Positions 47,964 through 58,200 of a stretch of 64,000 bases of DNA are shown here, in pieces (position 1 is the stretch's first letter; every line of letters starts with the position of its first letter). The translations under genes and the position numbers were made by a program. Below the pieces are notes generated by a model that ran no database searches, was not told the origin of the DNA, and worked only from the letters and a program-made list of their open reading frames with translations. Where the stretch lies: positions 52,081 to 116,080 of the forward strand of contig DGLB01000074.1 of NCBI GenBank assembly GCA_002387845.1, in the 5' to 3' direction. The DNA is from Stenotrophomonas maltophilia (GTDB lineage: Bacteria; Pseudomonadota; Gammaproteobacteria; Xanthomonadales; Xanthomonadaceae).

Positions 47964-47978
47964 CGCCGTCCCTTGACC

Positions 47979-48002
47979 GTAGAGCCGGGCTCTGCCCGGC
48001 TG
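47979..48002. repeat. SMAG REP palindrome (GTAGAGCCGGGCTCTGCCCGGCTG)
   Basis: Read directly from the sequence; immediately downstream of trpF. Confidence 0.8.
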
Positions 48003-48088
48003 CGCTTCGCGCAATCCCGCATTCACACACAGGGTCAGAAACCCCCTATGTGCGCCATCGTCAATTTCACGTAGCATCAACGGAACAA

Positions 48089-48110
48089 GGGAATGCCGGA
48101 GCGCATTCCC
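48089..48110. promoter_or_regulatory. Inverted repeat GGGAATGC-cggag-GCATTCCC about 50 nt upstream of the yqiJ-like gene (candidate operator)
   Basis: Perfect 8-bp arms read directly. Located in the only sizeable intergenic region preceding the 10-kb operon. Confidence 0.25.
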
Positions 48111-48159
48111 AGGGACGCCGCAGGGGGAAACCGCGGCATCGATGCAAGGAAGTTGTGAA

Positions 48160-48840
48160 ATGGCGGAATTTCTCAATGTCGCGCTGACATTCCCCACGTT
48201 GCCTTACAGCATCGTGTTGGCATTTGCCATGGTCTATTGGCTGCTGGCTGCCTGTGGCGTGGTCGACGACGGCTTTGCCACCGACGGTATCGACCTGGGC
48301 GGCGGCGAGGAGGGTCTGCACGGCATCTCCGGCATGTTCTCGCGCCTGGGCCTGGGCGGCGCACCGGTGATGCTGGTGATCGCGCTGCTGGCCTTCTTCG
48401 GCTGGACCGGCACCTACCTCACCCATCTGTTCCTGCTGCAGCCGCTGCCGGTCCCGCTGCGCTGGGCGGCTGGCAGTGCCGTGGCACTGCTGGCGCTGGT
48501 GCCGGCGGTACCGGTCACCGCGTTGATCCTGCGCCCGGTCCGGCGCCTGCTGCTGCGTCTGCGCGCGGTCCCACAGACGTCACTGCTCGGGCGCATCGGC
48601 GTGGTCGCGTCGCCGCAGGTCACCGCCAGCTCCGGCTACGCCACCGTTGACGACGGCGGAGCCGGGCTGATTCTGCAGGTCCGCCTGCCCGAAGGGCACA
48701 CCTTGCCACGCGGGTCACGGGTCGTGCTGATCGACTACGTGGCCGAACACAACCATTACCGGGTCGCTGGCGAAGACAGCCACCCTGCGCTTTCGTTCCA
48801 AGACAGCCTGATTGCGGGCGACAAGGAGATCCATCGATGA
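48160..48840 (+). CDS. YqiJ/DUF1449-like inner-membrane protein with C-terminal NfeD-type OB-fold domain (flotillin partner)
   Basis: RBS AAGGAAG 7 nt upstream. Membrane helices, then a beta-rich C-terminal segment (GRIGVVASPQVTASSGYATVDDGGAGLILQVRLPEG...GSRVVLIDYV) typical of NfeD short forms. The stop overlaps the flotillin start. Confidence 0.65.
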   Translation: MAEFLNVALTFPTLPYSIVLAFAMVYWLLAACGVVDDGFATDGIDLGGGEEGLHGISGMFSRLGLGGAPVMLVIALLAFFGWTGTYLTHLFLLQPLPVPLRWAAGSAVALLALVPAVPVTALILRPVRRLLLRLRAVPQTSLLGRIGVVASPQVTASSGYATVDDGGAGLILQVRLPEGHTLPRGSRVVLIDYVAEHNHYRVAGEDSHPALSFQDSLIAGDKEIHR

Positions 48841-50855
48841 GTGTTGCTGCCATGGCCCCGTTCCTGATTGGCGTGGGCGTACTGATTGTCCTGCTGCTCG
48901 GTCTTGCCGGCCTGTTCAAGGCGTTCTACCGCAAGGTGGACCAGGGCGTCGCGCTGATCGTCAACGACATGAGCTCCCAGCCCAAGGTGCACTTCACCGG
49001 TGCATTGATCATCCCGGTGCTGTACCGCGCCGAGCTGATGCGGATCAGCCTGATCACCCTGCAGATCGACCGTCGTGGCAAGGAAGGCCTGATCTGCCGC
49101 GACAACATGCGCGCCGATATCGCCGTGGCGTTCTACCTGCGCGTCAATGAAACCCAGGCAGATGTGCTGCGCGTGGCCAAGGCCATCGGTGCCGACCGCG
49201 CCTCGGACAAGCACGCGGTGGACGAGCTGTTCAACGCCAAATTCTCCGAAGCGCTGAAGACCGTTGGCAAGAAGTTCGAGTTCACCGAGCTGTTCGAGAA
49301 GCGCCAGGAGTTCCGCGACGAGATCATCGCGGTGATCGGCAACGATCTCAACGGCTACGCGCTGGAAGACGTGGCCATCGACTACCTGGAGCAGACCCCG
49401 AAGCTGCTGCTGGACCAGAACAACATTCTCGATGCCCAGGGCATCCGCAAGATCACCGAGCTCACCGCTGCGCAGAACGTGGTCACCAACGAGCTGGAAC
49501 AGAACGAAAAGCTGGCCATCACCAAGAAGAACGTCGAGGCACGCGAAGCGCTGCTGGCGCTGGAGCGCCAGCAGGCCGAAGCCGAAGCCCGGCAGAAGCG
49601 CGAGATTGAAACCATCCAGGCCCGCGAACAGGCCGAAACCGCCAAGGTGCAGGAAGAGCAGCGCCAGCTGGCCGAGCATGCCCGCATCGAAGCGCAGGAG
49701 CTGATCGACATCCGCGAGCAGAACCGCCTGCGCGAAGTGGAAGTGGCCGAGCAGAACCGTCAGCGTGCCGTCGCCATCGAGGCCGAGCGCGTGGAACGTG
49801 CGCGCCAGCTGGAGCAGGTCACCACCGAGCGCGAAGTGCAGCTGCAGGGGGTTGAACGCGACAAGGTGGTCGAGTCCGGCAAGATGGACGTGGCCAACAT
49901 CACCCGCGAGCGCATCGCCATCGACAAGACCGTGGCCCAGGAAGAAGAGCGTATCAAGGAAGTGCGCGAGGTTTCCGAAGCCGACCGCCAGAAGCAGGTG
50001 CTGATCCTGGAAGCCGAAGCCAAGGCCCAGGAACTGCTGGTGCGCCAGGTCAAGGAAGCGCAGGCCGCCGAAACCTCGGCCAAGCACCGCGCGGTCGAGA
50101 TCACCACCCTGGCCCAGGCCGAGCACGAAGCCGCCGGCAAGCAGGCCGAGGCCAAGCGCCTGCTCGCCGACGGTACCCGTGCCGAACAGGCCGCCCCGGG
50201 CCTGGCCGAAGCGCAGGTGCGCGAAGCCTCGGCGCTGGCCATCGAGAAGGTCGGTATCGCCGAAGCCCGCGTGATCGAGGCCAAGGCCGACGCCACCCTC
50301 AAGCAGGGCACCAACGACGCTCGCGTGCTGGCTGAAACCCTGCAGGCCCAGGCCCAGGGTGAAGAGCAGATGGGCCGTGCCCGTGCTACCGCGACCGAGT
50401 CGGTCGGCGGTGCCGAAGCCGGTGTGGTGCAGAAGAAGCTGCTGGCCGAAGCCGAAGGCCTGGTCCGCAAGTTCGAGGCGATCGCCTCGCTCAGCGACAG
50501 CGCCCGCGGCCATGAAGAGTTCCGCATGATGCTCGACAACAGCCTCAAGCAGGCCCTGGCGTCGATCGAAGCCGGCAAGGAAGTCTCGCGCGAGAACGCC
50601 GGTGTCATCGCCAGCGCGCTGCGCAACGCGGATATCGACCTGGTCGGCGGCGACGGCGGCATGTTCGAGAACCTGATCAAGGCCGTCTCGCTGGGCAAGT
50701 CGATCGAAGGCCTGGCCGGCAAGAGCCCGATCGTCCAGGACCTGATGCAGCGTTACCTGGGCGTGACCGCGCGCGAAGAAGCACCGCGCCAGATCGCCGA
50801 CGAGCACACCGCCACCGCCGACACGGTGTCGGCCACCGTCGTCGACGCGCGCTGA
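48837..50855 (+). CDS. Flotillin/SPFH (band 7) family protein, YqiK-like, with long C-terminal E/A/R/Q coiled coil
   Basis: N-terminal TM helix. SPFH core (ALIVNDMSSQPKVHFTGALIIPVLYRAELMRISLITLQIDRRGKEGLICRDNMRADIAVAFYLRV). About 350 aa of heptad-rich EA repeats. Confidence 0.8.
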   Translation: MSVAAMAPFLIGVGVLIVLLLGLAGLFKAFYRKVDQGVALIVNDMSSQPKVHFTGALIIPVLYRAELMRISLITLQIDRRGKEGLICRDNMRADIAVAFYLRVNETQADVLRVAKAIGADRASDKHAVDELFNAKFSEALKTVGKKFEFTELFEKRQEFRDEIIAVIGNDLNGYALEDVAIDYLEQTPKLLLDQNNILDAQGIRKITELTAAQNVVTNELEQNEKLAITKKNVEAREALLALERQQAEAEARQKREIETIQAREQAETAKVQEEQRQLAEHARIEAQELIDIREQNRLREVEVAEQNRQRAVAIEAERVERARQLEQVTTEREVQLQGVERDKVVESGKMDVANITRERIAIDKTVAQEEERIKEVREVSEADRQKQVLILEAEAKAQELLVRQVKEAQAAETSAKHRAVEITTLAQAEHEAAGKQAEAKRLLADGTRAEQAAPGLAEAQVREASALAIEKVGIAEARVIEAKADATLKQGTNDARVLAETLQAQAQGEEQMGRARATATESVGGAEAGVVQKKLLAEAEGLVRKFEAIASLSDSARGHEEFRMMLDNSLKQALASIEAGKEVSRENAGVIASALRNADIDLVGGDGGMFENLIKAVSLGKSIEGLAGKSPIVQDLMQRYLGVTAREEAPRQIADEHTATADTVSATVVDAR

Positions 50856-50876
50856 GCGGGGCAGAGCCCGCTCTAC
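50856..50876. repeat. SMAG-like palindrome (minus orientation: GTAGAGCGGGCTCTGCCCCGC) downstream of the flotillin gene
   Basis: Read directly from the sequence. Confidence 0.6.
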
Positions 50877-50929
50877 ATTTCCACCGGCCGGTACCTCCGG
50901 CCGGTGTACCGTGAGCCGGAAGGAAGCTG

Positions 50930-53900
50930 ATGTCTGATACCGACCCCCGTCCCGACCCGTCGTCGGCGGAAGCCACTACCACCGTCGATCAGGCGGTTGC
51001 CCAGGGCGGAGCCTATGAAGTCCTGCGTCGTCGCCTGGGCGAGCAGGGCACGCGCCTGCGCGGTTTGGCCGATGCGCTCAACCGCCAGCGTCTGGTGGAA
51101 TTCGGGGACAGCCGGCTGGAGGTCATTGGCCGCTTCCGCATCCGCAGCGAAAACAACTGTGTAGGCCGGGACATCGTGCAGGTCGGACCGGACCTGCTGC
51201 TGTTCGGCTACAACGTCTACCTGGGGCTGAAGACCCAGACCCGGGTCGAGGACGTATTCGGCCTGTACCGGCTGGTGCAGTCGGGCGAGGGCTACGACGT
51301 GGTGCCGGTCGATGCCAAGGGCAGCTTCCTGGCCCAGGCCGGCTTCGTGCATGACTTCAGTGAGCTCTACGCCTACTACAAGCATGCGCGCCTGCTGCAG
51401 CTGATCAAGGTCGGTGACAAGCTGCTGGCGTCGTTCCAGATCGGCGAGCGCAGCAGTGACGTACGTGTGTTCCGCTGGGCGGTCTCGCGCGAGGGCGAGC
51501 TGACCTATCTGGATGCGCGCGGCGAGCGTGACATCGCGCTGCCGCCGCCGTTCGATTTTGAGTGGACCCGTGCCACCCGCGACATGGCGGTCAGCGGGCG
51601 TCATTCACATCTGAATATTCTGGACACCCTGTTCGTCGAGACCACCGGTGGCGATCTCACCATCAAGGTCGAGAACAACACCGAAAGCGGGCAGGGCATC
51701 TACAGCGAGCCGGTGGACGACAGCACCCAGTCGCTGGACGACGCCCAGTTCGATTTCGTCCGAGTCGGCTCATTGGTGCTGCTGAAGGTGCTGCCGTACC
51801 GCGAAACGGTATGGCGTGGCTTGATCTACAACACGTTGACCGGCGCGATCGTGCGCAATGACGCCATCGTGCAGGCCTGCGTGCAGCTGCCGGAAGACCA
51901 CGGCATCATCTTCCCCGGTGGCTATTACCTGCAGAGCGGCGAGCACAAAGCCTTCGACGCTTCGATGCAGGGCATGCAGTTCAAACGCGCGATCCGCTCG
52001 CCCAATGGCGAGGACGTGCTGTACATCTTCTATGAGCGCGAAGGTGGGCGCTCGGCGCTGTTCGTCTACAACACCATCCAGCGCGTGCTGCAGAACCCGG
52101 TGTTCGGCCACGGCTATGCCTTCATGCACGACGGGCGCATGGTGCTGTTCCACGCCGAAGGCACCGAGCCGACCCGCATCCACCCGATGCAGGTCTGGCA
52201 GACCCCGTTCAGCAGCGACGAATTTGCCGCCAGCCGGCCACCCGGCAACACCTTCATGGGCCGCATCGGCAACGCCGAGCTGGTTCGCGGCATTTCCAAC
52301 CTGTTCGACCTCGCCCGGACCATCGAAGGCCAGGACGTTTCGGTGCAGCGCTACCAGCGCCTGGTGCAGGATACCCGGCGCATGTTCGACGCCCACCACT
52401 GGCTCGACGATGCCAGCTGTGACGGCGCGGCCGGCCTGCTGCGCGAGATCAGCGCCACCGGCGAGTCGGTGCTGGACGAGTACGAAAAGGTCCAGAGCAT
52501 CCGCCAGCAGTCCGCCCAGGCCATGGCCCAGGCGCAGTCCAGCCAGAAGGCCCTGCTGGCGCGGTTGCAGCCGGAGAACTGGACCGGGGTGCAGGCCTTT
52601 GTCGAGGCGCTCAACGCGATTTCCACCCAGCGCGGTCATCTGCTGACCATCCGCGACTATCGTTACATCGATACGGATGTGATCGACGCGATGACCACCG
52701 CGTTGCAGGAAGCGCACGACCGCGTCGGTGCTGCCACCGGCCAGTTCCTCGCCGACGAGCGCGCACTGGCTCCGCTGGGCGAGCGCCTGCAGGCGCTCGA
52801 TGAAGCCGCGCAGCAGGCGGAAAGCGCGCGCGTGCTGGATGAACAGCTGGCCGGAATGCGCGGCATGGCCGCCGACCTGGACATGCTGTCCGCGCTCATG
52901 GCCGGGCTGAAAGTGGACGATGCCACCGCGCGTACCCGCGTAGTGGAAGCCATTTCCGCCGTTTACGCGCGCCTCAACCAGAGCCGGGTGCGTGCCGAGC
53001 AGCGACGCCGCACGCTGGGTTCCGCCGAGGCGGTGGCGCAGTTCGCCGCCCAGTTCGCGCTGTTCTCGCAGTCCATCACCAGTGCACTGGGCATGGCCAC
53101 CGACCCCGAGCGGGCGGATGAACAGATGTCGCGCCTGCTGGTGCAGCTGGAAGAACTGGAAAGCCAGTTCGGCGAGCACGAGCAGTTTCTGGGTGACATC
53201 CTGGCCAAGCGCGAAGAGCTGATCGAAGCCTTCGAGACCCACAAGCAGGCGCTGCTGGATGAACGCCAGCGTAAGGCGCGCTCGGTGCTCGATGCGGCCA
53301 CCCGCATCCTGGATGGCCTGGCCAAACGTACCGAGCGCTTTGCCAGCGCCGACGAGCTCAACGCGTTCTTCGCCGGCGACCCGCTGGTGCTCAAGCTGCG
53401 CGAGTTGGCCGAGCGGCTGCGTGAGCTGCGCGACAGCGTCAAGGCGGACGACGTCGAGGCGCGCCTGAAGGGCGTACGCGATCAGGCGGTGCGTGCGCTG
53501 CGCGACCGCAGCGATCTGTTCGAAGCGGGCGGCAACGTGGTGCGGCTGGGCCCGCGCCATCGCTTCAGCGTCAATACCCAGGCGCTGGACTTGACCCTGC
53601 TGCCACGCGGCGACGAGCTCGCCATCCACCTGACCGGCACCGACTTCCTGGAAGCGCTGCACGATCCGGAGCTGGCCGAGCTGAAGGCCTATTGGCAGTT
53701 GGGACTGGATTCGGAATCGGCGCAGCTGTATCGCGCCGAATACCTGGCCGGCAGCCTGCTGCTGGCCGCGATGGAAGCACGCGATGGTCTCGATCTGGCG
53801 GCTCTGCAGCATGCCGCTGCCGAGCCGGATGCGCTGGAGAAGATCGTCCGTGACTTTGCCGCACCGCGCTACCGCGAAGGCTATGAACGTGGCATCCATG

Positions 53901-56320
53901 ACCACGACGCCAGTCTGATCCTGCACGCGCTGCTGCCATTGCAGCAGGCCGCCGGCACGCTGCAGCATGCGCCACGCGCACGCGCGCTGGCCCTGCTGTT
54001 CTGGGCCGCGCAGCAGCGCCGCGAAGACGTGGCGCAGTGGTCTGCGCGTCAGGCCGGGGCCGATGCCATCGCCCGCCTGTTTGGTTCCAGCGAAGGTCAG
54101 CAGGCCCTGCTGGCCGAGATGACCACCGCATTGGATGCGTTCGTGCAGGAGCGCCAGCTGCCGTTCCAGACCGAAGATGCGCAGGCGTCGGCCGCCTATC
54201 TGGCTGCCGAACTCAGTGTCGGCGAGCCCGTTTTCAGCACCAGCCGCTACGCGCAGGCCCTGCTCGAAGCACTGACCCAGCATCTGCAGTCGGCCGGCCA
54301 GCGCGAAGCCTTCGACCGTGCCCTGCAACGCGAGCAGGACGGCCTTGCCGCGCGCTGGAAACTGGCGGGTCAATGGCTACGCGCACTGTGCCAGCTGCCG
54401 GCCTACGCCACGTACGCCGGCTACGCCGATGAGGCGGCAGCACTGCTGCTGGTGTCGCGTGCGCTGCGCACGCGTGGCAGCGAGGTCGCCCTGCAGGTAC
54501 AGGTGCAGGGGCTGCTGGGCGAGCACGCGCGCATCCAGCAGGGTCACCTCACCCTGTCGCTGGATGACTTCCTGGCACGCCTGCGCACCCACCTGCAGCA
54601 GTTCGTGCCGGCCTTCCATGCCTACCAGGGCGTGCGCCAGCGCATCATCGTGCGCGAGCGCGACGCCTTGCGCCTGTCAGAGTTCAAGGCCCGCCCGCTA
54701 TCCTCGTTCGTGCGCAACAAGCTGATCAACGACGTCTACCTGGGCGTGATCGGTGACAACCTGGCCAAGCAGATGGGCACGGTCGGCGAGAACAAACGCA
54801 GCGACCTGATGGGCCTGCTGATGATGATCTCGCCGCCGGGCTACGGCAAAACCACGTTGATGGAATACGTGGCGCACCGGCTGGGCCTGGTCTTCATGAA
54901 GATCAACGGCCCGGCGCTGGGCCACGAGGTGCGCTCGCTGGACCCGGCGCAGGCTCCCGATGCCACCTCGCGGCAGGAGCTGGAAAAGCTCAACCTGGCG
55001 CTGGAGATGGGCAACAACACCATGCTGTATGTCGACGACATCCAGCATACCCATCCCGAGTTCCTGCAGAAATTCATCTCGCTCTGCGACGGCACCCGCC
55101 GTATCGAGGGCGTGTGGCGCGGGCGCACCCGTACCTACGACATGCGCGGCAAGAAATTCTGCGTGGTGATGGCCGGCAACCCGTACACCGAGTCCGGCGA
55201 GGTGTTCAAGATTCCGGACATGCTCGCCAACCGCGCCGACATCTACAACCTGGGCGACGTGCTGGGTGGCATGGAAGAGGCCTTCACCCTGAGCTATATC
55301 GAAAACAGCCTGACCTCCAACGCGGTGCTGGCCCCGCTGGCGACGCGTGACATGGCGGATCTGTACCTGCTGGTCGACCGCGCGATGGGCAAGGAGGTCT
55401 CCACCAATGCGCTCAGCCACGCCTACAGCGGCGCCGAGATCAACGAGATCGTCGCGACCCTGCAACGCATGCTGCGCGTGCGTGACGTGGTCTACCGGGT
55501 CAACCAGCAATACATCGCCAGCGCCGCACAGGACGACCGCTACCGCACCGAGCCGCCGTTCCGGCTGCAGGGCAGCTACCGCAACATGAACAAACTGGCC
55601 GAGAAGATCTCGCCGGTGATGAACGAGGCCGAGCTGCAGCAGCTGGTCTCCGACCACTATCTCGGCGAAGCGCAGCTGCTGACCACCGGTGCTGAAGAGA
55701 ACCTGCTCAAGCTGGGCGAACTGCGTGGCGTCCTGGGCGAGGATGAGCTGCAGCGCTGGGCGCAGATCAAGCGCGACTTCCTGCGCAACAAGGCCATGGG
55801 GGCAGGCGATGCCGATGTCGGCGGTCGCGTGGTGGCGCAGCTGGCCGACATCGCCAGTGCGCTGCAGAGCAGTGCCGACGCCGCACCGCTGAATGCAGCG
55901 GACCCCGCACCGTGGCCCGCATTGCTTGCCGCATTGGAGCGCCTGGTTCCGGTGCCGGCACCGGCCACACCTGTGGTTGCGGCGGAGTTCGCTCCTGTCG
56001 ACACCGGCGTGCCGCACCCCCCACCGCTGCCGGCCGCCGAGCCGATTGCCCAAGGGTTGCAGGAAGGGCTGGCCCCGCTGCTGCAACTGCTGGGCCAGGC
56101 CAATGCGCAGCAGGCGCGCACCGGTGAAACCCTGGCCTTGCTGGCCAGCTGGGTGCGCGAACAGATGGAGCGCGGCCCGGCCGCACCGCCACGCCCGCGC
56201 GCACGCCGCGCCAGCACGCCGCAGGAGCGTGCGCTCGACGAGGCACTGATGCGTCACTTCTACGGTGAATCCACCCTGCCGCCGCGGTGGACCGGCGCTG
56301 CGGATGATGCGCCGGCATGA
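50930..56320 (+). CDS. Giant (1796 aa) uncharacterised protein: unknown N-terminal domains, extended central helical/coiled-coil region, C-terminal MoxR/AAA_5-like ATPase domain
   Basis: RBS GGAAG. Walker A ISPPGYGKTTLMEY, Walker B NTMLYVDDIQH, sensor-1-like VVMAGNPYTESGEVFKIPDMLANRADIY (compare MoxR ATQNP...LPEAQLDRF). Central A/L/E/Q/R-rich helical region. Stop overlaps the next start (ATGA). Confidence 0.7.
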   Translation: MSDTDPRPDPSSAEATTTVDQAVAQGGAYEVLRRRLGEQGTRLRGLADALNRQRLVEFGDSRLEVIGRFRIRSENNCVGRDIVQVGPDLLLFGYNVYLGLKTQTRVEDVFGLYRLVQSGEGYDVVPVDAKGSFLAQAGFVHDFSELYAYYKHARLLQLIKVGDKLLASFQIGERSSDVRVFRWAVSREGELTYLDARGERDIALPPPFDFEWTRATRDMAVSGRHSHLNILDTLFVETTGGDLTIKVENNTESGQGIYSEPVDDSTQSLDDAQFDFVRVGSLVLLKVLPYRETVWRGLIYNTLTGAIVRNDAIVQACVQLPEDHGIIFPGGYYLQSGEHKAFDASMQGMQFKRAIRSPNGEDVLYIFYEREGGRSALFVYNTIQRVLQNPVFGHGYAFMHDGRMVLFHAEGTEPTRIHPMQVWQTPFSSDEFAASRPPGNTFMGRIGNAELVRGISNLFDLARTIEGQDVSVQRYQRLVQDTRRMFDAHHWLDDASCDGAAGLLREISATGESVLDEYEKVQSIRQQSAQAMAQAQSSQKALLARLQPENWTGVQAFVEALNAISTQRGHLLTIRDYRYIDTDVIDAMTTALQEAHDRVGAATGQFLADERALAPLGERLQALDEAAQQAESARVLDEQLAGMRGMAADLDMLSALMAGLKVDDATARTRVVEAISAVYARLNQSRVRAEQRRRTLGSAEAVAQFAAQFALFSQSITSALGMATDPERADEQMSRLLVQLEELESQFGEHEQFLGDILAKREELIEAFETHKQALLDERQRKARSVLDAATRILDGLAKRTERFASADELNAFFAGDPLVLKLRELAERLRELRDSVKADDVEARLKGVRDQAVRALRDRSDLFEAGGNVVRLGPRHRFSVNTQALDLTLLPRGDELAIHLTGTDFLEALHDPELAELKAYWQLGLDSESAQLYRAEYLAGSLLLAAMEARDGLDLAALQHAAAEPDALEKIVRDFAAPRYREGYERGIHDHDASLILHALLPLQQAAGTLQHAPRARALALLFWAAQQRREDVAQWSARQAGADAIARLFGSSEGQQALLAEMTTALDAFVQERQLPFQTEDAQASAAYLAAELSVGEPVFSTSRYAQALLEALTQHLQSAGQREAFDRALQREQDGLAARWKLAGQWLRALCQLPAYATYAGYADEAAALLLVSRALRTRGSEVALQVQVQGLLGEHARIQQGHLTLSLDDFLARLRTHLQQFVPAFHAYQGVRQRIIVRERDALRLSEFKARPLSSFVRNKLINDVYLGVIGDNLAKQMGTVGENKRSDLMGLLMMISPPGYGKTTLMEYVAHRLGLVFMKINGPALGHEVRSLDPAQAPDATSRQELEKLNLALEMGNNTMLYVDDIQHTHPEFLQKFISLCDGTRRIEGVWRGRTRTYDMRGKKFCVVMAGNPYTESGEVFKIPDMLANRADIYNLGDVLGGMEEAFTLSYIENSLTSNAVLAPLATRDMADLYLLVDRAMGKEVSTNALSHAYSGAEINEIVATLQRMLRVRDVVYRVNQQYIASAAQDDRYRTEPPFRLQGSYRNMNKLAEKISPVMNEAELQQLVSDHYLGEAQLLTTGAEENLLKLGELRGVLGEDELQRWAQIKRDFLRNKAMGAGDADVGGRVVAQLADIASALQSSADAAPLNAADPAPWPALLAALERLVPVPAPATPVVAAEFAPVDTGVPHPPPLPAAEPIAQGLQEGLAPLLQLLGQANAQQARTGETLALLASWVREQMERGPAAPPRPRARRASTPQERALDEALMRHFYGESTLPPRWTGAADDAPA

Positions 56321-57021
56321 TGCGTGGCTGGCCCGTGCCGGTGCCTGTGGCAACCGACGCACTCGGACTGTCACGCTACGGCGCGTCGTTGCTCGATGCG
56401 CTGGGGCAGGGGGCGACGCCGCCGGTCGGGCATGACCCTGCGGCGGCACGCCTGCTCGCGGTGCTGGCACAGCTGGGCGCGGTGGTGCAGGCTGCCAACC
56501 CTGCCGCGGCGCGACGTCGTGTCAGCTGGTGGGGACGTCTGCTCGGGCGCGATGTCGAACAGGAGCTGGAGGCGCACGACAGCCAGTCACGGCTGGGTGT
56601 GCTGCTGGTACAGGCCGATGCGGCCGTGCGGGGCGTCGCCGCGCAGCTGGCACAGCAGGCGGCGGCGCAGGAACGCGCCATTGATGCCGCTATGATCCTT
56701 GAAGCCTGGGCCGATGCCGGACACGCGCAACTGGCCGCGTTGGCTCCGCCTTTGCAGGATGTATTGGCGCAGCGATTGGACCATCTGCGCCGGCTGGCCG
56801 CGCTGCAGCAGGTCGAGGCGGGGCAGTGGCAGCTGCTGCGCGAACAGAACGCAGCGCTGCTGGCCCGCAGTCAGCGCATTACCGAGACCCTGCTGCCGGC
56901 ATGGCAGCAGACCGTGCTGACGCGTCGGGCCGCCGACCAGCAGCAGCGCGACCAGCAGGCCACGCAGCTGCTGGCGCAGATCAGCGCCGAGGTCGCCTCG
57001 GCGCAGGCTAGACTGGACTGA
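56317..57021 (+). CDS. Hypothetical helical protein (234 aa, Ala/Gln/Leu-rich), translationally coupled to the giant ATPase gene
   Basis: ATGA overlap at 56317-56320. No recognisable motif. Predicted amphipathic helices. Confidence 0.5.
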   Translation: MMRGWPVPVPVATDALGLSRYGASLLDALGQGATPPVGHDPAAARLLAVLAQLGAVVQAANPAAARRRVSWWGRLLGRDVEQELEAHDSQSRLGVLLVQADAAVRGVAAQLAQQAAAQERAIDAAMILEAWADAGHAQLAALAPPLQDVLAQRLDHLRRLAALQQVEAGQWQLLREQNAALLARSQRITETLLPAWQQTVLTRRAADQQQRDQQATQLLAQISAEVASAQARLD

Positions 57022-57062
57022 CCCGTGTATTTCATTGCCGCCCCTTTCAAGGAGACTTCGCC

Positions 57063-58163
57063 ATGACCCAGGACACGCCGAACAGCTCGGCCCTTGCCGT
57101 GGCCGCGCCCACGGTGGATGACGCCACCTTGAAGGCACTCGGTCTGGTCCAGGACGACCTGCCGCGGATCGCCGAGATCGGGCGCAGCCTCGAAGACATC
57201 CGCCCGGGCAACCTGCAGGTGTTCGGGCGTGACGCAGCGGCCAAGACCGCAGCGTTTTCCAGCCAGCTGCTGGACCAGGTGCGCAATCGGGACCTGGATG
57301 CCAGCGGTGAGAAGCTGGGCGAAGTGGTACGCATCGCGCGCACGTTGAATCTGGACGGTCTCACCCAGCGCTCGAAGGTGCCGGTGATTGGCGGCCTGAT
57401 CGACAAGCTGCGTGCGTCCAAGGGCGAGCTGGTGCAGAAGTTCAGCGACACCAACCGGCAGATCGAGCAGCTGCTCGGCGACGTTGGCAGCCAGCAGGCG
57501 CTGATGGGCCAGCGGGTCGGCGAGTTCGACCGCATGCACGAGATCGTGCGCGAAGAGCGCCACGCACTGGGCCTGCATATCGCCGCCGGCAAGCAGCGTC
57601 TGGGCGAGCTTCGCGCGGAACAACAGGCATCGGTAGGCAACGACGACCCGCAGGTGCGCATCCGCCAGGGCGAACTGGACAACGCGATCCGCCTGCTCGA
57701 CAAGCGGGTCGGTGACCTGGTGGTGATGCAGCATGCGGCCGACCAGTCGCTGCCGATGATCCGCCTGATCCAGGCCAACGCGATCCAGCTGATCGAGAAG
57801 TTCAACACCGTCCGCGACATCACCATTCCGTCGTGGAAACGGCAGTTTGCGATCCAGCTCAGCCTGAGCGAGCAGAAAAGCGCGGTGGAACTCTCCAACG
57901 CGATTGATGACGCGACCAATGACCTGATGCGCCGCAACGCGGACCTGATGCGGCAGACCTCGGTGGAAACCGCCAAGGCCAACCAACGCGCCGTGATTGA
58001 CGTGGCCACCCTGCGCCATGCCCACGACCAGTTGATCGCCACGGTGGAAGAGGTGCGCACCATCCATCGCGAAGGCATGCAGCAGCGCCAGCAGGCGGAA
58101 GTCGAACTCGCGCGCCTGCGCGAAGAGGTGCAGGCCAGGCTGGCCGCGCCAACGGCTGCCTGA
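57063..58163 (+). CDS. TelA/KlaA (toxic anion resistance)-family protein
   Basis: RBS AAGGAG. About 366 aa, helical. Layout and motifs (LDLDGLT, QALMGQRVGEFDRMHEIV, DLVVMQHAADQSLPMIRLIQANAIQLIEKFN) resemble TelA/YaaN-family proteins. Family assignment from memory, moderate. Confidence 0.55.
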   Translation: MTQDTPNSSALAVAAPTVDDATLKALGLVQDDLPRIAEIGRSLEDIRPGNLQVFGRDAAAKTAAFSSQLLDQVRNRDLDASGEKLGEVVRIARTLNLDGLTQRSKVPVIGGLIDKLRASKGELVQKFSDTNRQIEQLLGDVGSQQALMGQRVGEFDRMHEIVREERHALGLHIAAGKQRLGELRAEQQASVGNDDPQVRIRQGELDNAIRLLDKRVGDLVVMQHAADQSLPMIRLIQANAIQLIEKFNTVRDITIPSWKRQFAIQLSLSEQKSAVELSNAIDDATNDLMRRNADLMRQTSVETAKANQRAVIDVATLRHAHDQLIATVEEVRTIHREGMQQRQQAEVELARLREEVQARLAAPTAA

Positions 58164-58173
58164 TCATGATTAG

Positions 58174-58200
58174 GGGGTGACACGCATGGCGTGTCACCCG
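58174..58200. repeat. REP-type palindrome GGGGGTGACACGCATGGCGTGTCACCC between convergent telA-like and LysR genes
   Basis: Read directly from the sequence; a likely bidirectional terminator. Confidence 0.75.

Follow-up and report, generated by a model that had tools for sequence, protein, structure and literature searches.

Five consecutive genes, here called g1 to g5, lie on the forward strand at positions 48160–58163 of a 64,000-nucleotide stretch of Stenotrophomonas maltophilia DNA (contig DGLB01000074.1 of assembly GCA_002387845.1; the whole stretch is referred to below as the window). With moderate confidence, we read this locus as the Stenotrophomonas/Luteimonas TelA variant of a widespread flotillin-anchored, ATP-driven membrane-stress module. 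The invariant core of the module is a trio (g1-g2-g3) made up of a YqiJ/NfeD-like protein with three transmembrane (TM) segments, a YqiK-type flotillin and a cytoplasmic ATPase of 1,600–1,800 amino acids (aa). To this core are added accessory cassettes, namely YjfI (CesT/Tir-like, DUF2170) with PspA on the upstream side, TelA together with a TelA-like protein on the downstream side, and a PLD hydrolase with a single HKD motif at the 3′ end; the TelA pair is the only one of these that the window operon carries. A scan of the window for open reading frames (ORFs) gave the following genes:

48160..48840, + strand: g1, probable YqiJ/NfeD-like membrane protein of 226 aa (ORF, hydropathy, 16-sequence alignment)
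48837..50855, + strand: g2, YqiK-type flotillin of 672 aa (profile comparison, hydropathy)
50930..56320, + strand: g3, cytoplasmic protein of 1796 aa with Pfam domains DUF3686, DUF7902 and AAA_5 (Pfam, AlphaFold2)
56317..57021, + strand: g4, soluble helical protein of 234 aa, its start overlapping the g3 stop in ATGA (10-orthologue alignment)
57063..58163, + strand: g5, TelA-family (“toxic anion resistance”) protein of 366 aa with no membrane segment (Pfam, hydropathy)

An earlier, sequence-only reading of this DNA had described five same-strand genes with two ATGA stop/start overlaps, and we found both overlaps exactly where it had placed them, at 48837 (g1/g2) and 56317 (g3/g4). Shine-Dalgarno sequences of the AAGGAGA or GGAAGGAAG type precede each of g2, g3 and g5, and the G+C content of the operon is uniform with its surroundings. 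The g1 start proposed by that reading, at 48160, was preferred over the in-frame Met codon at 48142 because alignments with homologues begin at this second Met and because AAGGAAG stands 8 nt upstream of it. A single transcription-unit-like cluster is supported.

Conservation of the core trio and its accessory genes

We scanned one genome per species, which gave 547 confirmed relatives of g3, and analyzed the best 80 loci, of which 63 had complete flanks. The trio occurred together, in the same order and on the same strand, in all 63 of these, and g1 was found upstream of g2 in 76 of the 80 loci, the remaining four ending at a contig edge. The trio was retained in relatives of 28–40% identity, and was also present on a Streptomyces linear plasmid, a Deinococcus megaplasmid and the Pseudomonas megaplasmid pQBR103, as well as in Proteus mirabilis. 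All five genes stood in identical order in 27 species-level loci from Stenotrophomonas, Xanthomonas chitinilytica and Luteimonas; since this order is shared so widely, and the trio by 63 of 63 loci, the juxtaposition of the five genes is not due to chance. The proposal that all five form a single functional unit agrees with their transcription-unit-like clustering, but only g1-g2-g3 are universally co-conserved, and the neighborhood comparison suggested in the sequence-only reading showed conservation of the full set within the Stenotrophomonas/Luteimonas clade and not of g4 and g5 outside it. The core is thus g1-g2-g3, and g4 plus TelA is a clade-specific accessory pair; neither g4 nor TelA was found in Longimicrobium, in the betaproteobacteria sampled (Lampropedia, Comamonas, Delftia and Vandammella), or in Orbales, Proteus and Deinococcus.

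The gene content of the 63 loci was as follows:

Trio, g4 and TelA (the window type: Stenotrophomonas, X. chitinilytica and Luteimonas): 27 of 63 loci
YjfI-PspA, trio and PLD: 11 of 63 loci
YjfI-PspA and trio: 9 of 63 loci
YjfI-PspA, trio and TelA: 6 of 63 loci
YjfI-PspA, trio, TelA and PLD: 5 of 63 loci
Trio alone: 5 of 63 loci

TelA is therefore an optional element present in 38 of the 63 loci, as are YjfI-PspA directly upstream of the trio (31 of 63) and PLD (16 of 63). We had considered that the TelA and PspA cassettes might be mutually exclusive, and rejected this because 11 loci have both. The PLD gene, an ORF of about 230 codons with a single HKD motif (PLDc_2), directly follows either g3 or TelA (loci L024–L026, L031 and L073, and L041–L046, L054, L058, L062, L074 and L077).

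Two plasmid-borne loci show the trio in other company. On pQBR103, a well-studied environmental megaplasmid (NC_009444.1, 84.4–97.6 kb; locus L092), the trio comes last in a ten-gene same-strand cluster that runs YjfI, PspA/IM30, rhomboid protease, DUF2491, DUF350, DUF1190, glutathionylspermidine-synthase-like protein, YqiJ-like protein, SPFH protein and “DNA repair ATPase”. Without the trio, this cluster is the Escherichia coli yjfIJKLMC PspA-family operon plus a rhomboid gene. On a plasmid of Streptomyces sp. NBC_00080 (L093), the trio is followed at a distance of about 4 kb by a TerD-family gene that stands among genes for metal and oxidative stress (ArsB, SOD and CopC), which we take as another hint of a link between the trio and Ter/Tel-type stress genes.

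The YqiJ-like protein and the flotillin

Hydropathy analysis placed membrane segments in g1 and g2 and none in g3, g4 or g5. In g1, three hydrophobic segments (about residues 7–37, 59–88 and 96–128) are followed by a beta-rich C-terminal domain, in which the 16-sequence alignment revealed a conserved motif, DDGGAGLILQVR...RG. In g2, an N-terminal membrane anchor (residues 1–34) precedes the SPFH domain and a coiled coil that is long and rich in Glu and Ala. The two genes are coupled by the ATGA overlap and were adjacent in every locus with enough flank.

Pfam and NCBIfam scans returned nothing usable for g1, g2 or g4. Sub-threshold Pfam matches to NfeD and YqiJ_N were each seen in 3 of 16 g1 orthologues, and g2 gave no Pfam match at E ≤ 0.01, Band_7 included, and a weak one to NCBIfam FloT (E = 1.5e-3; 17.7 bits against a cut-off of 700). 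Since no Pfam match rose above threshold, we assigned the pair by comparing profiles with the E. coli proteins. The g1 profile aligned with YqiJ end to end over 183 columns (hhalign probability 86%, E = 5e-6), and the 15-sequence g2 profile aligned with YqiK over 393 columns, covering residues 7–450 (99.9%, E = 3.7e-31), which bears out the resemblance to yqiJK noticed in the sequence-only reading. Taken at the level of sequence, g1 is probably YqiJ/NfeD-like, and g2, whose identity across the loci ranges from 47 to 99%, classifies as a divergent YqiK-type flotillin; we judged it a divergent subgroup rather than a non-member because its orthologues in distant loci do match Band_7. A search of PDB sequences with the g2 profile, run to E ≤ 10, turned up no SPFH structure.

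Operons of an NfeD-like protein and a flotillin are known as yqiJ-yqiK in E. coli and yuaF-floT in Bacillus subtilis, and of the window proteins g2 is a homologue of YqiK and g1 a probable one of YqiJ. As described for the SPFH2 group (PMC2636767), yqiJ-yqiK are ordered and tightly coupled just as g1-g2 are. The window pair differs from its E. coli counterpart in that yqiJK has no third gene whereas g1-g2 is always followed by the gene for the giant ATPase, and in that g2 is longer (672 aa, compared with 553 aa for YqiK) and falls below the Pfam Band_7 threshold.

Architecture of the giant ATPase

The sequence-only reading had regarded the C-terminal ATPase module as the sole recognizable part of g3. 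This did not hold, as Pfam DUF3686 matched residues 43–490 over nearly its whole length (E = 2.8e-193; profile positions 2–448 of 448) and DUF7902 matched residues 612–694 (E = 1.2e-22), in addition to AAA_5 and AAA at residues 1297–1424. More than 6281 homologues were counted in the family, clustering at 50% identity leaves at least 886 groups, and the DUF3686/DUF7902/AAA domain set was precomputed in all 120 g3 homologues among the matches listed. As to whether the giant protein would prove to be a known characterized family, it belongs to a named Pfam family, but to an uncharacterized one.

Consistent with a cytoplasmic location, hydropathy analysis detected no hydrophobic segment in g3. 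We modeled residues 1–1200 with AlphaFold2 (AF2) using 35 homologues down to 26% identity, which gave a mean predicted local distance difference test (pLDDT) score of 83; the mean scores of the g3 models were 83 and 80.5. The parts of the protein, all on the + strand, are as follows:

Residues 13–58: N-terminal long helix (AF2)
Residues 64–424 (51119..52201): beta-propeller, the core of DUF3686 (AF2, pLDDT 85–92)
Residues 430–860 (52217..53509): long helices/coiled coil, including DUF7902 at 612–694 (AF2, helices at 448–858; Pfam)
Residues 870–1175 (53537..54454): small beta domain (about 870–910) followed by a helical domain (AF2)
Residues about 1260–1650 (54707..55879): AAA+ module of the MoxR/midasin/dynein clade (motifs, fold)
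Residues about 1651–1796 (55880..56317): Pro/Ala-rich, poorly conserved tail with one predicted long helix (model)

Foldseek comparison of the propeller with the PDB returned generic WD40-like and other propellers only, including the DCAF1 WDR domain, Sec12, Ski8, the clathrin terminal domain and intraflagellar transport (IFT)-A proteins (E = 1e-6 to 1e-3). The propeller and coiled-coil arm resemble eukaryotic coat and IFT proteins superficially. No specific structural match was identified for residues 870–1175, the helical domain of which holds three residues that are invariant in the family alignment (G988, H990 and D993). The tail has pLDDT values below 50 in several segments, and many homologues align only up to residue 1647–1672.

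The proposed C-terminal AAA_5/MoxR-type ATPase was confirmed by Pfam, by its motifs and by its fold. The module contains Walker A (GYGKTT, 1304–1309), Walker B (YVDDIQH, 1367–1373), a sensor-1 region (MAGNPYTE, 1414–1421) and LANRAD (1432–1437), and its closest folds are CbbQ and NorQ, in agreement with its assignment to the MoxR/midasin/dynein clade. Because Walker A and Walker B are intact and invariant in the family alignment, the ATPase is probably active. In a search of PDB sequences with the g3 profile, the matches were confined to the P-loop region of RuvB and p97-type ATPases. The usual partner of a MoxR-type ATPase is a VWA-domain protein, NorD in the case of NorQ. Compared with CbbQ and NorQ, which are about 260–350 aa long and work with a VWA adaptor, g3 has some 1,250 extra N-terminal residues.

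The TelA pair

The match of g5 to Pfam TelA is full-length (E = 1.2e-68; 232.1 bits, with a cut-off of 30; positions 15–331 of the 332 in the profile), in agreement with the TelA/KlaA-like character that had been proposed for it. The protein is accordingly a full-length member of the family that includes TelA/KlaB of the RK2 kilA locus, B. subtilis YaaN and Listeria Lmo1967. In the cases studied, the gene partners of TelA are KlaA/KlaC or XpaC, whereas g5 comes after the giant ATPase and a TelA-like, putatively truncated protein. The TelA profile matched no PDB sequence. Within the 120 closest TelA homologues listed, every one with a named organism was from Lysobacterales, and at least 11 appeared to be on the same contig as a g3 homologue. 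The best g5 match (99% identity) was annotated as Stenotrophomonas oahuensis.

The smaller protein, g4, evolves fast (29–90% identity) and has a conserved G-R-L-L-G-R-D motif. Weak matches to Pfam TelA were seen in 3 of 10 orthologues, the best with E = 0.0085 and that of the window protein with E = 0.33, and comparison of the g4 and TelA profiles gave E = 0.0017 with a probability of only 15% over 49 columns, so that g4 may be a truncated, divergent TelA paralogue. By tblastn, most loci with TelA also had g4, and no locus that lacked TelA and had a complete downstream flank did; in some divergent TelA loci, g4 fell below the tblastn threshold, yet an ORF occupied the same position.

A TelA gene also accompanies a distant trio in loci L087/L088 (GCA_030248655.1). 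There, a convergent TelA with 23% identity to g5 lies about 550 nt downstream of a trio with 29–34% identity to that of the window, and a ClpX-like ATPase and a Dam-like methyltransferase stand beside it. This may represent an independent association of TelA with the trio.

Genomic position, spread and selection

The operon of Stenotrophomonas is always located between fimV-truA-trpF and LysR-trpBA, and this position is fixed in the 27 species-level loci; it is a core, non-mobile position of the Stenotrophomonas genome. Within the fixed-position set, the identities of g2 (82–99%) and g3 (72–97%) are comparable to those of truA and trpB. The g3 protein of the window is 96–97% identical to those of “S. 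maltophilia STE2” and several metagenome-assembled genomes (MAGs).

Outside this set, g3 is 72% identical to its homologue in Longimicrobium (Gemmatimonadota; MAGs L028, L032, L034, L084 and L085), which is as high as the identity to Luteimonas of the window's own order, and 58% identical to a protein encoded on a Deinococcus megaplasmid (the Deinococcus actinosclerus plasmid, L095). These two values point to horizontal spread; they reflect one of three things, recent cross-phylum transfer, binning error or exceptional constraint.

Two public records look like contaminated or mislabelled assemblies. One (L006; JAHREJ010000015.1), labelled Bacillus subtilis SK7B5, has 87% g3 identity and the full fimV-truA-trpF...LysR-trpB synteny, and the other (P0020), labelled Flavobacterium sp. 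MXW15, likewise contains sequence of the Stenotrophomonas/Xanthomonas type.

Relation to described systems

The sequence-only reading had called the locus a candidate novel system and had known of no characterized system combining its components. The first of these statements is too strong, because the combination of a YqiJ-like protein, a flotillin and a propeller-coiled-coil-AAA+ protein has already been described computationally as a PspA-associated operon type. From gene neighborhoods, Ravi et al. (2024; mSystems 9:e00847-23, PMC11237479) defined a class with a CesT/Tir(YjfI)-PspA pair, YqiJ/YuaF, a band-7/flotillin protein and a beta-propeller-coiled-coil-AAA+ protein, with or without PLD, allowed for “abbreviated” operons that lack the CesT/Tir-PspA pair, inferred a PspA-linked role for the trio and reported the operon in a Bacteroidota genome (Dokdonia). 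The second statement stands insofar as none of these operons has been characterized experimentally; our search of the literature on TelA/flotillin/NfeD/AAA combinations and on Stenotrophomonas flotillin found no experimental study, and DUF3686 was mentioned in none of the papers searched.

The core of the window operon has the same parts as this class, a 3-TM YqiJ-like protein, a flotillin with TM, SPFH and coiled-coil regions, and a protein with propeller, coiled coil and AAA+, and the optional PLD and the PspA-less forms of the class were also seen among our related loci. It is from architecture and context that we place g3 and the Dokdonia protein in one family. The window operon differs from the class in lacking the YjfI-PspA pair and PLD and in having a TelA-like protein and TelA instead. 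What our analysis adds is this TelA-bearing, PspA-less variant, fixed in the core genome of Stenotrophomonas. TelA is not mentioned in the main text or supplement of PMC11237479, and the 2012 paper on Ter/TelA by Anantharaman, Iyer and Aravind may already note its link to the trio.

The genetic coupling of an SPFH scaffold to an AAA+ and/or PspA-family protein at the inner membrane has parallels. SPFH assemblies serve as platforms for AAA+ machines, e.g., HflK/C with FtsH, according to a passage in PMC13220708, and the B. subtilis SPFH protein YdjI is stated in PMC8581546 to be needed to bring PspA to the membrane. There are also differences, in that FtsH is a classical-clade AAA+ protease while g3 belongs to another AAA+ clade and has no protease domain, and the SPFH subfamilies differ as well. 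The pairing of ESCRT-III with Vps4 offers an analogy only, that of an AAA+ ATPase genetically linked to PspA (ESCRT-III superfamily) and membrane scaffolds; Ravi et al. drew it for other PspA-AAA+ pairs (PMC11237479).

Proposed mechanism and its alternatives

From the gene structure, homologies, predicted folds and co-conservation described above, we infer the following physical interactions, substrates and stress role. The flotillin and the YqiJ-like g1 would together build an SPFH scaffold, anchored in the inner membrane at its cytoplasmic face. On this scaffold, g3 would dock via its propeller/coiled-coil arm and oligomerize via its AAA+ module, spending ATP on the assembly, remodeling or recycling of peripheral helical membrane-stress proteins or of the flotillin cage itself. 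Its clients would be TelA and the putative truncated paralogue in this operon, and PspA in other lineages, and the outcome would be an inner membrane kept intact under envelope damage. The TelA family is linked in PMC12791056 to tolerance of tellurite and of envelope-acting antimicrobials, and the same source, citing Collins 2010, gives Listeria TelA mutants as more sensitive to nisin. Also in favor of this reading are the YjfI-PspA and TelA genes that recur beside the trio, the unbroken conservation of the trio itself, the housekeeping-like position and identities of the operon in Stenotrophomonas, and the parallels of SPFH-dependent PspA recruitment and of HflK/C with FtsH. The membrane-associated, ATP-driven role suggested in the sequence-only reading is the one that we rate most plausible. 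A more specific version, which we put forward tentatively as a possibility, is that the trio is a flotillin-anchored membrane-remodeling motor, in which a MoxR/dynein-clade AAA+ ring assembles or strips lattices of helical stress proteins, with TelA (plus its putative truncated paralogue) and PspA (plus YjfI) as interchangeable clients.

Several observations weigh against a membrane-stress module. The 64-kb window contains no PspA or YjfI gene, so that the link of this operon to PspA is by homology of context only, and a relationship of TelA itself to PspA was rejected at the sequence level (hhalign probability 0.2%). No VWA-domain gene was found in the operon or in any related locus with annotated neighbors. 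Growth of E. coli yqiK mutants was not impaired under the general stresses applied, according to unpublished data that PMC2636767 cites, and our literature search found no experimental study of any member of the g3 family. Lastly, a patchy distribution of the kind left by horizontal gene transfer, accessory genes that come as modules and an added PLD gene are features that would suit a conflict system as well.

Such an anti-phage or conflict system, in which the flotillin and YqiJ-like proteins sense the disturbance of the membrane during infection and the ATPase acts as a switch that frees an effector (PLD in some lineages, a TelA-linked action on the membrane in this one) to bring about abortive infection, would account for the modularity of the accessory cassettes, for the single-HKD PLD that follows the trio in 16 of 63 loci, for the cross-phylum identities of 58–72%, which suggest horizontal transfer, and for the Dam-like methyltransferase and ClpX-like ATPase that adjoin TelA in L087. 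Database naming and family lore also link TelA/Ter genes to phage and colicin resistance. We nevertheless consider a conflict system unlikely, and the defense role raised in the sequence-only reading found no support. None of the five proteins matched any family of PADLOC-DB v2 at E ≤ 0.01, no g3 homologue was present in 50,697 phage records, and only 13 of 72,556 plasmid records had one, most of these being megaplasmids, chromids or mislabelled chromosomes. Moreover, the position of the operon is constant in the core genome across Stenotrophomonas, the neighbors in distant loci are metabolic or stress genes rather than restriction, integrase or Cas genes, and purifying selection is very strong, unlike that on typical defense genes. 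Improbable to a similar degree is a dedicated MoxR-type chaperone that uses the flotillin as a platform for assembly or maturation of one membrane complex or for cofactor insertion, with TelA and PspA as merely co-regulated neighbors. Client maturation by NorQ/NorD and CbbQ/CbbO provides the model for such a chaperone, and the closest folds of the AAA+ module, together with the HflK/C-FtsH precedent for SPFH platforms, favor it; yet neither a VWA adaptor nor a candidate client gene is conserved beside the trio, the only recurrent neighbors are PspA/YjfI, TelA and PLD, and nothing in MoxR chaperones corresponds to the 1,250-residue propeller and coiled-coil part of g3.

The remaining two explanations concern single parts of the locus. 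That the TelA pair g4-g5 is a chance neighbor, functionally unrelated to the trio, would agree with the fact that 25 of the 63 complete loci lack TelA, as does, L087/L088 apart, every distant phylum sampled. We regard this as very improbable, because the start of g4 overlaps the stop of g3 and the g3-g4-g5 order is kept in 38 loci across 58–99% TelA identity, because the closest TelA homologues listed all come from operon-bearing lineages, often apparently on a contig with g3, and because a very distant TelA again adjoins a distant trio in L087/L088. Still less credence is due to g3 as a DNA-repair ATPase, the function implied by the Pfam description of DUF3686, by the family name “DNA repair ATPase” and by NCBI product names (“DNA repair ATPase” or “DNA repair protein”), and echoed by weak RuvB matches confined to the Walker A region. 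Pfam, AF2 and Foldseek identified no nuclease, helicase or DNA-binding domain in g3, its invariant partners are two membrane proteins, and the similarity to RuvB covers about 40 residues at the P-loop, whereas MoxR, midasin and dynein score higher structurally. The name, which probably stems from a coiled-coil likeness to SMC/RecN-type proteins, appears unfounded in light of these comparisons.

Candidate regulatory elements

Along with the genes, we read the intergenic regions of the locus and aligned seven upstream regions. The following elements were noted:

47964..48159, + strand: upstream intergenic region after trpF, presumably the location of the promoter and 5′ untranslated region (UTR) of the operon (sequence read)
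About 48043–48081, + strand: block conserved in close Stenotrophomonas, ...CCCCTATGTGCG...ATTTCACGTAGCATCAAC, a candidate promoter or regulator site (upstream alignment)
48089–48110, + strand: stem-loop GGGAATGC-CGGAGC-GCATTCCC, some 50 nt before g1 begins (sequence read)
50882–50906, + strand: GC-rich 10-bp hairpin CACCGGCCGG-TACCT-CCGGCCGGTG in the 74-nt gap between g2 and g3 (sequence read)
58175–58199, between convergent g5 and LysR (no strand assigned): perfect 11-bp hairpin GGGTGACACGC-ATG-GCGTGTCACCC (sequence read)

The spacer between trpF and g1 measures 196 nt. Its conserved block, which can also be read as CCCCTATGTGCG ... ATTTCACGTAGCATC(A/G)AC, is shared by the window and loci L003, L005 and L053. 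A scan for the sigma-70 consensus found no site on the + strand and did not call this block. Pairing in the stem-loop at 48089–48110 survives changes on both sides in L003, L005 and L053 (in L053, GGGCACGC...GCGTGCCC), and the loop, CGGAG(C/T), is kept in these three other Stenotrophomonas loci; the element may be a 5′-UTR RNA element or an operator. Rfam gave no match in the 5′ region of the operon.

A terminator scan called nothing on the + strand. The hairpin between g2 and g3 was not called. As it lacks a T tract, it may serve mRNA processing or stability and not termination; it could determine how much flotillin is expressed relative to the ATPase. The hairpin downstream of g5 escaped this simple scan because it has no T run; it probably terminates transcription in both directions and marks where the operon ends on its 3′ side, and beyond it lie the convergent LysR gene and then trpB, trpA and accD.

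Implications

The functions of bacterial flotillins and of TelA (“tellurite resistance”) proteins are long-standing questions, and this operon ties both to one strongly conserved ATP-driven protein, whose family spans Pseudomonadota, Actinomycetota, Deinococcota and Gemmatimonadota. S. maltophilia is genetically tractable and clinically relevant, and it carries the five genes at a fixed core position; the system is therefore directly testable there. If the operon were a defense system after all, it would be an unusually conserved, chromosomally fixed one. If the trio is a remodeling motor, TelA would gain a first mechanistic role, and bacterial PspA-type systems a Vps4-like activity that arose independently of Vps4. 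More generally, if g3 remodels assemblies of TelA, PspA or flotillin, it would represent a new type of membrane-maintenance machine, and one that could add to the tolerance of membrane-active antibiotics.

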